DNA of 43,577 bases from a virus (Duplodnaviria > Caudoviricetes), in the IMG/VR virus record IMGVR_UViG_3300048060_000004, positions 1 to 43,577 of that record. The stretch is one strand, 5' to 3'. The translations under genes and the position numbers were made by a program. The notes under the pieces were generated by a model, which ran no database searches, was not told the origin of the DNA, and saw nothing but the letters and a program-made list of their open reading frames with translations. Of this stretch, positions 22,889 through 39,571 are shown in pieces; position 1 is the first letter of the stretch; every line of letters begins with the position of its first letter.

Positions 22889-23971
22889 ATGGCAAATCCA
22901 TTTTTAGAAGCACTCGCAACATCCCCATCTGCTGGTACGCTTGGGATGTTTAACCCGCGACCAATACCAGAACTAACCCAAGCTCCGCAGGATCAAGTGA
23001 CTCCAGAGCTACCTGCAATTCGAGCAGGTGCATCCCCAGCACTACAAGCCCCAGCCGCACCGATGGACACGCTGGGAGACATGCAGACTGGAGTATTTGG
23101 AGCGCCAATTGCGACACCATCTGGATTGACATCTCCAGAGGCGACACCAACGATTACCGCACCACAACTGGCTGCAAACGTTCCGCAGTCCCCGATGGCT
23201 CAGATTGATCCAGCGACAATGACGGCTGCTCCTCAGCCACCGTCTGGCGGTCTAGCTGCATTCGGAGGACGAACACTGAACCAATACCTCACTGATCCTA
23301 CCGTAGAAGGCGCTGGATTAATGACAGACCCACAAGGACGCATGATTCCATCAGGCTTTGCGACGCGAGCAGAGGCATATCCCGCGTATGAGGCCGAGGC
23401 AGCGGCTAGAGAACAGCGCCTAGCGGATGCGCAGGCTGGACGTGCAGCAGGTGGAGAACCGCGAACATACGGCGGCTACAAAGCGTCTCAGCTTCGTGAT
23501 ATGGTTGGGGGTGGCAAGGCGCTCCAGCAGGCTAAAGCGTTTGCCGAGACTGGGCGTGATCCAGTCAGCGGCGACCCGATTAAGACTAACGAGGATACTC
23601 GCACACCAGAGCAGGTAGAGATGGATCGACTTGAGCTTGAGCGCAAGCGTCAGATTGTAGAAGCTGGTCGCTCCCCAGAGGCAACACCATCCGAAAAGCA
23701 GAGGGGATTGCTGGAAGAGTCCTTTGAGTCAGGCGCAATATCTCAGGCTGAGTATGATGCAGGGTTGCGAGCATGGAAGAAGAAGTTCTTGGGCATTGAC
23801 CCATTTGATGTAGAAGAGGGGGGTGACGTAGTTTCGGCGGGGGCGGAAACGCCTGCGGAAGAGGGTGCAACTCCCTCCACCTCCAGCGCACCAGCGGTTG
23901 GAACAGTTCAAGGTGGATATGAATTTACGGGCGGCGACCCATCTGACAAGAATAACTGGAAGAAAGTCTAA
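22889..23971 (+). CDS. Probable internal virion (ejection) protein
   Basis: Pro/Ala-rich, ends GYEFTGGDP....NWKKV. Confidence 0.6.
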   Translation: MANPFLEALATSPSAGTLGMFNPRPIPELTQAPQDQVTPELPAIRAGASPALQAPAAPMDTLGDMQTGVFGAPIATPSGLTSPEATPTITAPQLAANVPQSPMAQIDPATMTAAPQPPSGGLAAFGGRTLNQYLTDPTVEGAGLMTDPQGRMIPSGFATRAEAYPAYEAEAAAREQRLADAQAGRAAGGEPRTYGGYKASQLRDMVGGGKALQQAKAFAETGRDPVSGDPIKTNEDTRTPEQVEMDRLELERKRQIVEAGRSPEATPSEKQRGLLEESFESGAISQAEYDAGLRAWKKKFLGIDPFDVEEGGDVVSAGAETPAEEGATPSTSSAPAVGTVQGGYEFTGGDPSDKNNWKKV

Positions 23972-27734: not shown

Positions 27735-27929
27735 CTATATCTGCTTGTTCTGTGGTAAATCCTCAATCCACCCGCAAGGGCAGTATGTTGAATCATCAGT
27801 CAGCGTGCAGAGAATTTCGCCGCAGGAAGGACAGCCAGACTCTCCAGCCACAAACGGGGGCACAGAACCAGCCGATGCGCTATCAACAGCGAGATCGCTG
27901 CCAGTATTATCCGTCTCGTGTTTATCCAT
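27735..27929 (-). CDS. Small Zn-ribbon cassette protein
   Basis: CPSC...CPC; start inside attC-like site. Confidence 0.65.
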   Translation of the reverse strand: MDKHETDNTGSDLAVDSASAGSVPPFVAGESGCPSCGEILCTLTDDSTYCPCGWIEDLPQNKQI

Positions 27930-28224
27930 AGTTATTCTCCGTTTGCTCGCTGTGAGCGATCTCAGTGTTATCAGAGAGAAATGCCGGAAAAATATCCCCA
28001 GTCTCGCGGTTAAAATCCGAGTCACACTCAAAGTCGCACTTATCGCATTCATACCACCTTGGGCCTTCGTCCGCTTCGTTCTCGTAGAGATTGCCCCCGC
28101 ATGTGGGGCATAGATAACCAGCCGATGCGCTATCAACAGCGAGGCCGCTGCCAGTTTTATCTGTTTTGTCTTTGTCCATAGTTATTCTCCGTTCTTCTCG
28201 CTGTGAGCGATCTCAGTGTTATCA
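27747..28224 (+). mobile_element. attC-like cassette array A (two sites: 27862-27973, 28112-28224)
   Basis: Near-identical ~110-bp AAC...GTT imperfect hairpins; GTTCTGTG/CACAGAAC and GTTATC/GATAAC cassette ends. Confidence 0.75.
27922..28179 (-). CDS. Small Zn-ribbon cassette protein
   Basis: CPTC...CDKC; N-terminus paralogous to neighbour. Confidence 0.7.
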   Translation of the reverse strand: MDKDKTDKTGSGLAVDSASAGYLCPTCGGNLYENEADEGPRWYECDKCDFECDSDFNRETGDIFPAFLSDNTEIAHSEQTENNYG

Positions 28225-35809: not shown

Positions 35810-36154
35810 TTAGTTGGGTTGAATGTCTCCGTCTTCCTGCGCCTTGTCAAACAGGTAGTGCCAAGGCTCGGTAGGACGTTCGCTCATTTCGTAAAGGTCG
35901 TCGTTCTGCTCGTTGCGAACTTCTACGATGGTGTATTCGTCATAGATGTGAGTATCTACGCCATCGCCAACATCGTGCTTCTCTCGATGCTCAGTTCTTA
36001 GCCAACGCACCTCGATGGGGATTTCAGTTGCACTTGCAGTGTATTCGTCTTGATCTGTCCCGCAGATGAATGAGATGATCTTTGACCACAGTGAGTCACG
36101 CTCTGTTGCGATTGGCTTGTATAGGCAGTGATATGATGTCTCGTTCCAGTTCAT
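35810..36154 (-). CDS. Hypothetical protein
   Basis: AGGA leader, ORF in operon. Confidence 0.6.
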   Translation of the reverse strand: MNWNETSYHCLYKPIATERDSLWSKIISFICGTDQDEYTASATEIPIEVRWLRTEHREKHDVGDGVDTHIYDEYTIVEVRNEQNDDLYEMSERPTEPWHYLFDKAQEDGDIQPN

Positions 36155-36238
36155 TGTGTTTCCTTTCGTTGCAGTTAGCTTTTTAAGTGACCTGTAAGAA
36201 GTAATAGCTCTTTGAGCAGTTCGTCAAGTATTTCTTTG

Positions 36239-36610
36239 TTATTTTTTTTCACGGATTGTTCTGGTTCTGGTTGGCTTCAAGGTGATGCTATATTTGTCGC
36301 ACCAATCCCGAATGCTCTTATGGTTGAATCCAAGCTCTCGGCATACATTATTAACCGTTTCCCCGTTGTTGACGCGATCAGCCACAAGTCTAGCTCTGCG
36401 CTCCTGTTCCTCTGGCGGGTATCCTGTGCAGCCCATTCTGTTTGGGTTTTTCTTGGGCTGGAACTGGATGAATCCCATGCGCTCGTAGTGCTTTACCGCT
36501 CTAGCCCCAAGCTCGATGTTGATGGCCTTCTGGACTGCGCCCTTGATACTACCGCTGTAGTTGATGCAGTCAGAGATTCGCGATGTTTCTAGTGTTGATA
36601 CTGTGTTCAT
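36239..36610 (-). CDS. HTH-containing protein
   Basis: GETVNNVCRELGFNHKSIRDW. Confidence 0.65.
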   Translation of the reverse strand: MNTVSTLETSRISDCINYSGSIKGAVQKAINIELGARAVKHYERMGFIQFQPKKNPNRMGCTGYPPEEQERRARLVADRVNNGETVNNVCRELGFNHKSIRDWCDKYSITLKPTRTRTIREKK

Positions 36611-36631
36611 GTTTTTGTTCTTGTTTTTGTG

Positions 36632-37105
36632 TTATTTACTTGGTTGCCACTTGTTGGCCTTGATAGCCTTGGAGAATAAATCTGTGCGCTCTTCCGAGTT
36701 CTTTGGGGCTAGGATGTCAGTTTCTCTGTCGATCATGCCGACCTCCCGTAGCCCCTCCAGAAGCTCAAGCTGCTTGTCCTTGGGGCTGTTGCGAAAACGC
36801 TTGATGTTGTCACGCGCTCCGACTGGGTGCAGAACGTCCGTATCTGATTGATCCAGGAAGTTCGCTACGGCTCTTAGCATTTCTGGCAGGGGCTTCTGCC
36901 GCACGTCCAGCGAAAGGCGCTTGTAAGCGTTCTCGATGCGCCCCACGAATGCGTTGGTCTCTCCATCTATAGCTCCTCGCACCATTCCTGTGTCGTGGTT
37001 ATGGTCTAAGGCTGGATTCGTCATTGTAACGCCGCTGATCGGGCAGTAGTCAGGCCGATGCTCGTTGCGGTAGTCTTTAACCTTGTTGGATGTAAGATAT
37101 TGCAT
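36632..37105 (-). CDS. Recombination endonuclease VII-like resolvase
   Basis: CPIS...LDHNHDTGMVRG......N...G. Confidence 0.8.
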   Translation of the reverse strand: MQYLTSNKVKDYRNEHRPDYCPISGVTMTNPALDHNHDTGMVRGAIDGETNAFVGRIENAYKRLSLDVRQKPLPEMLRAVANFLDQSDTDVLHPVGARDNIKRFRNSPKDKQLELLEGLREVGMIDRETDILAPKNSEERTDLFSKAIKANKWQPSK

Positions 37106-37117
37106 GCTCTATATGTT

Positions 37118-37318
37118 CTACCAAATTAAAATCAGCGAAAAGACGAACCACCCGATACCAGATGCTCCACCCGTTAAGTGCGCCCAGTATGCGCAGATTC
37201 CCGCAGATGCGAATGTAGCCAGCGTTTGTCCAGTGTATCGCCATGCGGTAGAACCAGACGAGCTAGGCAATGCCTTAGCGGTCGCGGGTGTTTCAGTTTT
37301 TTGGTTTTCTTTACTCAT
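37118..37318 (-). CDS. Small membrane cassette protein
   Basis: Two hydrophobic segments; start inside attC loop. Confidence 0.65.
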   Translation of the reverse strand: MSKENQKTETPATAKALPSSSGSTAWRYTGQTLATFASAGICAYWAHLTGGASGIGWFVFSLILIW

Positions 37319-37498
37319 GGTGTCTTTTGTTGGTTTAGGTTATTCGGCGGCATCGCCTACTCTATATGTTGTATTGGTTTTCTTGGCGTGTAAAGCCCCT
37401 TTCTGTCGCTTTTGAAGCGAGACAGAACCTCCTCAAAGCTCTCATCGCGGCGCGGCCTGTTAAGACCTCCTAATCTTCGCTGCTCTGGCGTGTAACTA

Positions 37499-37747
37499 TT
37501 AGGATTCTTCATGTTGTGCAGTTCCTACTAATGGTCTGTTCGCGAGAAGAATTTGGTCGATGGCTTCATCGAGATCAACGGGACTCAGAGAATGGACATC
37601 AACACACCATTCAAGATGCGCCCATGTCATCCCGTCTGTGCCTTCTGAGTAGTCAATCTTTTCCTTGATCGCTCGGTATCGCATCGCATCGCGAACAAGG
37701 CGCTGCACATCAATCGCCTTCGCGTCGGAGTTTTCTGGTCTTTTCAT
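37499..37747 (-). CDS. Cassette hypothetical protein
   Basis: RDA.RYR...DLDEAID phage-type motif; start inside attC. Confidence 0.7.
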   Translation of the reverse strand: MKRPENSDAKAIDVQRLVRDAMRYRAIKEKIDYSEGTDGMTWAHLEWCVDVHSLSPVDLDEAIDQILLANRPLVGTAQHEES

Positions 37748-37750
37748 AGT

Positions 37751-38236
37751 CTATTTTCGCTCAGTCGATGAGTGAGCTTTGGCGTTCGCAGACAGAAAAT
37801 GAAGTTGTGATTCTTTTGCGTAGATCGCGCCACTTCCGTAGGATTCACCATCCTTGAAAGAGCCGTATCCATCAGCCACAAGCTTCCATCTTTTTCGCCT
37901 CTCATTGCTTAGCGTTGCTTCAAATGCTAGGTCGACATCCTCCCCGCTTTGAGGCCATCCGCGATTGGCGAAGTCTTGCCAGATCACACACCCTCTGCGG
38001 ATGCGAACCAAGCGTGGTGAGCAAACCATTTGGCCGCTCGATTTTCTGATAGCATTGTTATCCATATATCGGCGGATTTGCGTCTCTTCGGTGACTACCT
38101 TGATGATTCGAACTTCTTCAACGCTTGGCGCTAGGGTTTCGGCTATCTTGTGTGCGTCCTTCTCGTCTATTGCCTCGCAGCACTTGACGAAACAAGACTC
38201 TGGATATTTTGCTACTTCTACTCGGTATCTAGTCAT
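37751..38236 (-). CDS. Fusion of two cassette ORFs read through an attC
   Basis: Internal DNNAIRK...PRLVR segment is the 38002-38063 site. Confidence 0.65.
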   Translation of the reverse strand: MTRYRVEVAKYPESCFVKCCEAIDEKDAHKIAETLAPSVEEVRIIKVVTEETQIRRYMDNNAIRKSSGQMVCSPRLVRIRRGCVIWQDFANRGWPQSGEDVDLAFEATLSNERRKRWKLVADGYGSFKDGESYGSGAIYAKESQLHFLSANAKAHSSTERK

Positions 38237-38304
38237 TTTTTTACATTGGTTTAGGTTTCGACTGGCGCTAACCAGTCATACATGGCAACGGCTACGCCGC
38301 GCCA

Positions 38305-38514
38305 TTATTCGTTGTTGGCAGAGTGAAGTTTTATACGCTTCACCATCTCCTCAGTTTCAATGCGTATCGTTTCGCGCTTCATGTCTGAGATTTCCTGATA
38401 AGCTTTGATCTCCATGCGGGTTGTTATCCACTTCGAAAGAATCGAAGTGCCGCCAGCTAGAAGAATCAGTGAGCATATCGTGACTGCAATTATGGTTCCG
38501 TCTGTCATTTTCAT
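38305..38514 (-). CDS. Single-TM cassette protein
   Basis: Flanked by two 55-bp attC-like sites. Confidence 0.7.
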   Translation of the reverse strand: MKMTDGTIIAVTICSLILLAGGTSILSKWITTRMEIKAYQEISDMKRETIRIETEEMVKRIKLHSANNE

Positions 38515-38572
38515 ATTTGGGTTTGAGTTAAATTGCCAACCAAGCGTATATCACAACGCCTTTGGCGCGTGA

Positions 38573-38908
38573 TTACTTGGTGTTCTGAAACAATTTTCGC
38601 CAAGACTCGACCGTCTCCATAATTTCCTGATCGTCAGGCCATTCTTCGATAGGCGCAGTTGGGGCGGTCTCAAGCATCCGAGCCATCATGTCTCCAATCA
38701 CTCGGAGCGTTTTACAGTGTCCCACTAGCTCATTTTGCATTAGTCGGCCATGCGGATCACCCACAGCCTCCCGAATGTCCGCCAGTAAACCTAAAAGGGA
38801 ATACTCAGAACCAGCCGAAGCTGAGCAACGACTATTCGCCGCTTGCGATTCTTTACGTCCATCGTATTTGCCTAGCATGTAGGCCGTTGTTAGGTCTTCT
38901 GTGTCCAT
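38573..38908 (-). CDS. Cassette hypothetical protein
   Basis: Start inside attC 38805-38934. Confidence 0.7.
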   Translation of the reverse strand: MDTEDLTTAYMLGKYDGRKESQAANSRCSASAGSEYSLLGLLADIREAVGDPHGRLMQNELVGHCKTLRVIGDMMARMLETAPTAPIEEWPDDQEIMETVESWRKLFQNTK

Positions 38909-38921
38909 AGTCGTGTCGGTT

Positions 38922-39140
38922 CTAATTGTTCTCGAAGTATTCAGCGTAAGCCATCTTTACAGCCTCTTTCCCCACTTCGGCCATCCAGTCCATGTCTCCC
39001 ATATCTGACTTTTTGTCGATTAGTTTCCATGCAGCATAGGCATATATTCGACCGTCACTCAAAGATTCGAGAACCAGACGGGACATATCAACCTCACTCT
39101 CGCTCGGTTGCTTGATAGATTCAGGGTTATTTTCGCTCAT
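38922..39140 (-). CDS. Cassette hypothetical protein
   Basis: MSENNP...SRLVL leader; GTTCTCGAA/TTCGAGAAC ends. Confidence 0.65.
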   Translation of the reverse strand: MSENNPESIKQPSESEVDMSRLVLESLSDGRIYAYAAWKLIDKKSDMGDMDWMAEVGKEAVKMAYAEYFENN

Positions 39141-39571
39141 TGGTATCCTTAATTTTTCAGTGTTATTTTCGTTTTGGAATAATTCGAGTTGTTCGGAATG
39201 TCCTAATAGCTGGATGTGGGTCTTCTGTGTCCATTGAAATTGGCGGCATAAAGAGAAATTCAATCTCAAGCTGGGCTATCATCCAGCGTCAGCAGACTAT
39301 GCCAGTTTATTTAATAGGTAAATGCGTTGCCTTGGCTGTCAATGCTTAATCTCTTGCCCTCCTTGCTTAGTGTCAGGCCGCAGATTTCCCACTCCTCAAT
39401 CTCGCAGAGGTAGTAAGCCGCCTTAAGCTGGGCTTCGTTTAAGTAAGGGCGTTCCTTTTTAAATTCTTCGATGGTTTTCATTTGTTCTTCTCCATGAATT
39501 GACCGAGCTTAATCAGGTCGGCAGGTGAAAGGTCGTTTTCCTCTTGTGGTGTCATGTGGTGTTCGTCGTGG

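Follow-up and report, generated by a model that had tools for sequence, protein, structure and literature searches.

Arrays of attC sites that lack an integrase gene (CALINs) have already been published in phages as substrates of the integron integrase IntI1. Qi et al. (2023) described 17 phage CALINs, with TJE1, PH101, P12002L and MW202573 as CALIN-bearing virulent phages; IntI1 recombined five of the six sites tested, and those of PH101 were recombined more efficiently as bottom strand (PMC9892861). A reversed gene orientation is not remarked on in its text: the main text is silent on antisense genes, and the figures might show the layout. When three of the published layouts were rechecked, PH101 and MW202573 were found to be reversed and TJE1 forward. 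PH101 has four sites on the plus strand, which is the top strand of the paper, whereas all 14 of the genes annotated there lie on the minus strand; MW202573 has sites on the minus strand and genes on the plus strand, these sites coming from our own detector and perhaps differing from the four of the paper. The published CALIN stretches with annotated genes antisense to the attC top strand are KR534323 75900-78000 and MW202573 900-3750. A literature search, whose coverage left out subscription journals and bioRxiv supplements, returned no paper on reversed phage cassettes.

The other closely related systems are the sedentary chromosomal integrons of Verrucomicrobiota (loci labelled Coraliomargarita, Puniceicoccaceae, Luteolibacter and Opitutaceae), which have the same attC family, unpaired-base geometry and G/TT crossover as the locus described here. 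Their arrays carry larger genes on the top strand, often with hydrophobic N-termini, and there is an intI gene in the genome, whereas the genes of the phage array are small, antisense and partly encoded by the sites. IntI cleaves the folded bottom strand, which is oriented by extra bases (Nivina et al. 2016, PMC5027507), and in the phage, as in classical strand selection, the extra bases opposite the cleaved AAC make the minus strand the bottom strand. Inversion of a whole cassette by recombination of the top strand is treated as never observed (PMC5027507); the phage array differs from such an inversion in that the site has its normal polarity and only the gene is reversed. IntI also inserts cassettes at genomic GTT (attG), and folded attC sites are easily deleted (10.1101/2022.09.11.507474), a route into DNA without attI that fits the phage junctions consisting of G/TT only, although it was shown on the Escherichia coli chromosome and not on phage DNA or with reversed cassettes.

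Two cassette arrays in a phage genome

The window analysed here is the whole of a virus record of 43,577 bases, linear and estimated to be 100% complete. Terminase and capsid genes are on its plus strand, and the genes for primase-helicase, SSB, exonuclease and endonuclease VII on its minus strand. Array 1 lies within the minus-strand early region, immediately upstream of endonuclease VII, and a second array, of two cassettes, which the initial annotation did not include, is found at 27747-28220, at the junction between the late and early regions. No match to the tyrosine recombinase family (PF00589) was obtained in the genome, with 14 of 14 controls positive, in agreement with the earlier statement that none is encoded, so that the intI gene beside the array, a feature of complete integrons, is absent from this record. 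Four tRNA genes (Ser, Ser, Met and Thr) are located in 2498-2827. An Rfam match to tmRNA at 23819-23888 (39.9 bits, gathering score 47, E 1.2e-12) consists of the 5' and 3' ends of the model joined with 2 bases between them, inside the end of an ORF (22889-23971).

Array 1 and its fixed flank are made up of the following parts:

36632 to 37105, minus strand: endonuclease VII gene (PHROG 423, PF02945), fixed flank downstream of array 1
37103 to 37117, plus strand: J0, right-arm-only junction, G/TT at 37115, overlapping the endonuclease VII start
37115 to 37254, strand undecided: C1 core, ends complementary over 8 bp
37252 to 37370, plus strand: J1, intact attC-type site of 119 nt, long loop with a minus-strand ATG and leader
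37357 to 37512, minus strand: resident gene of 51 aa, not bounded as a cassette, crossing G/TT out of phase
37516 to 37540, plus strand: J2, right-arm-only junction, G/TT at 37538
37538 to 37786, minus strand: C3, core 37538-37696 and site J3 37694-37786 (three unpaired bases)
37499 to 37747, minus strand: C3 gene, 82 aa, start in the J3 loop
37784 to 38030, minus strand: C4, core 37784-38008 and J4, left arm only (38006)
38270 to 38316, plus strand: J5, intact attC-type site of 47 nt, of a family also present in Verrucomicrobiota
38314 to 38584, minus strand: C6, core 38314-38540, 69-aa gene 38305-38514, site J6 38538-38584 (47 nt)
38582 to 38930, minus strand: C7, core 38582-38811, site J7 38809-38930, 111-aa gene 38573-38908 starting in the J7 loop
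38928 to 39173, minus strand: C8, core 38928-39074, 72-aa gene 38922-39140, site J8 39072-39173

Array 2 is composed of two units:

27747 to 27969, minus strand: C9, core 27747-27868, site A 27866-27969, 64-aa Cys-rich gene 27735-27929
27967 to 28220, minus strand: C10, core 27967-28118, site B 28116-28220, 85-aa zinc-ribbon-like gene 27922-28179

The sites were located with a detector that looks for AAC, a 5-nt spacer, L'' with an extra base at position 4, a loop, L', a 5-6-nt spacer and GTT. Five intact attC-type sites were detected in 37001-39300 (at 37252, 37694, 38270, 38538 and 38809), against a mean of 0.033 (maximum 2) in 300 dinucleotide shuffles of this interval; a search of both strands of the complete window raised the count to seven, every one on the plus strand, with the two outside array 1 at 27866 and 28116. 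The initial annotation had proposed attC geometry with the plus strand as top strand, which these counts bear out, and the 12 motifs that it quoted were all found in place. R'' (AAC) and R' (GTT) boxes, spacers of 5 nt and 5-8 nt, and complementary L'' and L' are present at seven sites and not at J0, J2, J4 and J8; besides the extrahelical base at position 4 of L'', one or two more lie deeper within the same arm, a pattern that the aadA7 control primer geometry matches. When 1406 AAC positions were ranked by a weight matrix derived from 51 left arms that lie outside the window, some of which are homologues of J3 and J6, all seven left arms in array 1 came within the top 9. The sites of array 1 have a common geometry and not a common sequence, and an Rfam scan gave no match in either array.

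The ends of the cores are perfectly complementary in all six cases in array 1 (8, 8, 7, 7, 7 and 9 bp) and over 8 and 6 bp in array 2, whereas the flanks of any single site agree in just 1-3 of 4 bases, which is the pattern expected if the units were assembled from circles. The earlier description of a cassette array holds for these self-complementary ends and for the five intact sites; the array is not continuous, however, since four of its nine junctions are incomplete (37115 and 37538 have the right arm only, 38006 the left arm only, and 39072 a left arm with an unmatched right arm) and two stretches lack cassette boundaries (37368-37537 and about 38066-38269). Since two or more attC sites fall within 4 kb on the same strand (the clustering rule of PMC4889954) and intI is lacking, the element is, by the features tested, a CALIN and not a complete integron. 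No attI was identified for the array. A separate attI at 37115 was considered and rejected; a start codon overlaps this junction, which looks like the right arm of an attC (the last 11 bases of J0 are common to the right arm of J1, repeat D7). In array 2, sites A and B are near-identical 104-nt repeats, the left junction of C9 is G/TT only, and the left end of the array is incomplete and its right end complete. An exact 16-nt repeat (38893-38908 and 39219-39234) covers two minus-strand start codons and is possibly a remnant of another J7-type unit; contigs of two runs (X2 and X4) start matching at 39234.

Genes antisense to their sites

A codon model trained on 20 phage genes, whose check (146 of 151) used its own training genes, preferred the minus frame in eight of the ten segments and left C1 and C9 undecided. 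The proposal that all genes are reversed is thus supported for seven of the eight segments of array 1 and not for C1 (37115-37254), which has candidate ORFs of 66 aa on the minus strand (37118-37318, starting in the J1 loop) and of 103 aa on the plus strand (37104-37415), the public gene call being the plus-strand ORF, a singleton. The minus ORFs of C3 (35 matches), C6 and C7 (4 matches besides itself) are backed by homologues. A crude tally of longest ORFs, which is unreliable for short phage genes, gave five bottom and two top for this phage, and five bottom, three top and three uncalled for other phage loci. Promoter-like matches are at chance level, with none in 36000-39100.

The reading frames are interlocked with the sites. 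The minus-strand start codon lies inside the loop in J1, J3, J7, J8, A and B, the left arm of the long sites encodes the first residues, and the last residues and stop codon are usually supplied by the neighbouring site. At nine of the ten junctions the crossover AAC is a whole codon (phase 0), the exception being the resident 51-aa gene, and therefore a swap alters only the tail of the protein. Since the genes run opposite to the sites, the site of each cassette is located upstream of its gene, and the classical arrangement, in which the gene is on the top strand and ends at its own attC, is not seen. The cassettes thus fail the classical gene orientation, yet they work like integron cassettes. 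An upstream gene runs in frame into the ORF of C4 to give a single ORF of 161 aa (37751-38236), which appears to be a fusion of C4 with a resident gene at the point where J4 lacks its right arm; neither this ORF nor the C8 ORF (38922-39140) has homologues beyond itself. The cargo of array 1 gave no Pfam-named protein, one weak PHROGs match (an uncharacterised family) and only sub-threshold matches for two Atlas queries, and in array 2 C10 and, weakly, C9 resemble zinc ribbons below the Pfam cut-offs.

Polarity and exchange among phages and bacterial arrays

Complementarity of the cores alone cannot show which side a site travels with. The polarity is settled by three comparisons, namely a precise indel between related phages, the tails of homologous proteins at the crossover Asn, and a unit in common with a bacterial array, and as judged from these sequences it is classical: each unit comprises a core and the site that lies to the right of it on the plus strand, with exchange at G/TT. 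In the first comparison, a phage locus (L015) has 887 bp inserted at G/TT, with 4 bases of ambiguity, relative to three others with flanks 99.6-100% identical (L016, L021 and L023); in this block the sites lie to the right of the cores, one of them is identical to J6, and the tail of the upstream protein is changed. The body of J6 is also identical in a further locus (L013), with different flanks. As to the second, the nearest homologues of C3 (P0008, P0009, P0011 and P0027) retain the site-derived N-terminal arm, and the tail differs past the crossover Asn in P0008-P0011. A homologue of C6 (P0047) departs after the crossover Asn, and C6 is found at >90% identity beside another site. The tails of the C7 homologues P0002, P0003, P0051 and P0052 diverge at the same residue. 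The cassette-precise variation whose absence from relatives had been named as an argument against the cassettes is therefore present, as in the 887-bp indel at G/TT and in the tails that change at the crossover. P0004 and P0005 had at first pointed to the AAC end as the place of crossover, a reading that was rejected because the 887-bp indel and the bacterial unit contradict it. As separate observations, three loci (L015, L018 and L019) have the same 67-68-aa gene after a 47-nt site with the same R'' and a different gene on the other side, and L017 2838-3455 and L019 1734-2009 have a common C-terminal stretch that diverges after the crossover Asn.

In four runs, contig matches break off at the borders of sites (37370, 37540, 38269, 38316, 38538, 38584, 38809, 39071 and 39173). 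The contig of a relative in run X2 aligns as far as 37106, at the endonuclease VII flank; a loose end at 37370, at J1, occurs in run X4, and loose ends at J5 in runs X2 and X6; a contig of X4 has a different core after J2, a sequence similar to the resident 51-aa gene occurs in a loose end of an X4 contig, and one X4 contig matches 39072-39173, the site J8, which has a left arm and no matching L' box. Among the contig matches listed from these runs, which show presence and not absence, there was no joint that skips a cassette of array 1. A close relative with an alternative array was not found through endonuclease VII (nine loci at 38-39% identity and two short partial matches), the HTH protein (0 in metagenomes), the array itself (0 in INPHARED) or the primase (about 30% only), and C7 and the C3 alignment in viral contigs, the J7 arm in metagenomes, the site A arm in viral contigs and one pattern in the window gave 0 matches. 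A J1-type pattern occurred at 120 loci (80 and 40), none of which passed the detector, as for chance matches, and a further site pattern at 19 loci, six with a real site, four of these from the L015 group.

The 47-nt site pattern was found at 19 loci in GTDB, 12 of them labelled Verrucomicrobiota; the detector accepted 11 of these 12 and none of the other seven. Of the 29 sites in the 11 Verrucomicrobiota loci, 24 have the gene on the top strand and two on the bottom strand, and three are uncalled. IntI (TIGR02249) scored over the curated cut-off in all seven genomes tested (5/5, 1/1 and 1/1) against 0 of 14 controls. In these IntI-encoding Verrucomicrobiota the site family forms ordinary, forward arrays. 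The third comparison comes from one of the bacterial genomes (G569), in which C3 and J3 are present (210 of 268 bases identical, 78%) inside an array, antisense to three forward neighbours. The match begins at the GTT corresponding to 37538, which there follows a different site, and extends to the J3 crossover, overrun in the BLAST match by about 17 gapped, A-rich bases; the genome has three IntI genes, and the 2140-bp contig that bears the cassette has no link to intI. C3 is thus common, boundary to boundary, to the phage and a bacterial array, and it is the part of the analysis that adds most, being direct comparative evidence of traffic between phage and bacterial arrays. The text of the earlier phage study (PMC9892861) describes neither cassette-precise variation nor a cassette in common with a host array, both of which are present here.

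Reversed units among forward cassettes occur in three bacterial genomes (L205, L211 and L193), one of which (G417, L211) has a reversed unit with a J3-type site, and in another genome (G818) small genes on the minus strand surround a J6-like site, next to a gene that resembles a phage integrase; the bacterial contigs with reversed units are short or end near the arrays. In L193 1-1450 (G006:C111, a bacterial MAG) three reversed-type units are followed by forward cassettes at the contig end, an arrangement that may reflect either a mixed array or a chimeric assembly. Searches with array DNA matched 3 of 391 and 1 of 391 genomes, so that sharing is rare in the samples. The C3 alignment gave 0 matches against 401 Verrucomicrobiota genomes, with a positive control run, and the P0011 query one full match among 401 genomes of one family, the source of P0011 being labelled Verrucomicrobiaceae bacterium at NCBI. 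From the site family and the one shared cassette, the host of the phage is inferred to be a member of Verrucomicrobiota.

Movement of the units and its possible consequences

The reading that we regard as probable is that the phage carries, in its early region, a row of integron cassettes with normal site polarity and genes in the opposite orientation, likely moved by the IntI of a Verrucomicrobiota host; we infer that the host IntI does the shuffling and still does. The incomplete junctions and the fused C4 ORF speak against this reading, and the low predicted folding of J1, J6, J7 and A and a lower free energy of the bottom strand at no more than three of seven sites speak against high activity. 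The minus strand would fold during phage replication, and host IntI could act on the replicating DNA, recombining attC with attC or with a genomic GTT and so excising, inserting and reordering units, while the early transcript of the phage would express them. Half sites would be old targets or decayed sites, and a unit landing in a host array would face away from the host cassette promoter and be stored silent.

That the cassettes are real but a relic, left by a past off-target insertion by IntI, with useful genes kept, sites decaying and no current shuffling, seems rather unlikely. The four incomplete junctions, the fused ORF and the missing skipping joint among the contig matches listed would agree with it, as would insertion at genomic GTT and the ready deletion of folded attC sites (10.1101/2022.09.11.507474) and the low predicted folding of the long sites: by a crude estimate, the bottom strand adopts the recombinogenic fold with a probability of 3e-5 to 1e-3 in J1, J7, A and J6 versus 3e-3 to 0.9 in 28 of 29 bacterial sites. 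However, perfect end complementarity over 7-9 bp in all six cores, a J6 identical in another phage, the precise indel between phages 99.6-100% identical and C6 at >90% identity beside another site argue against decay. The integrase of a co-infecting phage or other mobile element could have moved the units instead of the chromosomal IntI, since the cargo is phage-like and the distant homologues of C3 are ordinary domains without site-derived ends, but this is quite improbable given that chromosomal arrays in IntI-bearing genomes have this same site family and that reversed units lie among forward cassettes in the L205, L211 and L193 genomes.

A mirror-image recombinase that cuts at the AAC end on the plus strand, so that a site travels with the gene that it follows, is highly improbable. 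It would account for the J7-derived N-terminus on a different core (P0004, P0005, P0053 and P0054) and for a C7 core with another N-terminus (P0003), and lower free energy is found on the bottom strand in only three of the seven sites, the plus strand folding slightly better in four; yet the C3 core of G569 is accompanied by the site upstream of its gene and not the downstream one, the 887-bp indel has the classical polarity and array 2 is incomplete on the left and complete on the right. The signs of a favoured bottom strand are mixed over the seven sites: beside this energy result, AT skew is negative in all, GC skew is negative in five, and G:T pairs number eight on the bottom versus one on the top strand. 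Chance, or common intergenic hairpins (terminators or boundary sequences) promoting homologous exchange, for which the near-identical repeats A and B could recombine without integrase, is hardly credible against array 1 sites alike in geometry and not in sequence, 0.033 sites expected, exchange at G/TT and terminator-like matches at chance level (8 versus 8.3 expected).

Taking host IntI as the agent, a broader reading is possible, which we put forward only tentatively: phages of Verrucomicrobiota may keep a mirror-image pool of cassettes, made of pieces of phage genes with start codons in the loops and a frame-locked crossover, and may trade them through host IntI with host arrays, orientation acting as an expression filter. 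If this is true, the host array would store phage cassettes silently as a reservoir, and the phage operon would leave any host cassette inserted into it unexpressed, anti-phage cassettes among them. Integrons are regarded as bacterial banks of anti-phage genes (10.1101/2024.07.02.601686), and if phages shuffle accessory genes with the same enzyme, the integron system would serve both sides. For gene annotation, start and stop codons are to be expected inside attC sites.

The origin of the attC sites on genes is an old question. The C3 core corresponds to part of a protein domain that is widespread and whose distant homologues do not have site-derived ends, which offers a handle on how genes acquire attC sites. 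Vibrio arrays are known to contain single antisense cassettes that have promoters of their own. Among the phage loci, L015 838-1268 is a reversed two-gene cassette that codes for an HTH regulator and a small protein, and the A/T-rich stretch upstream of it is possibly its own promoter.
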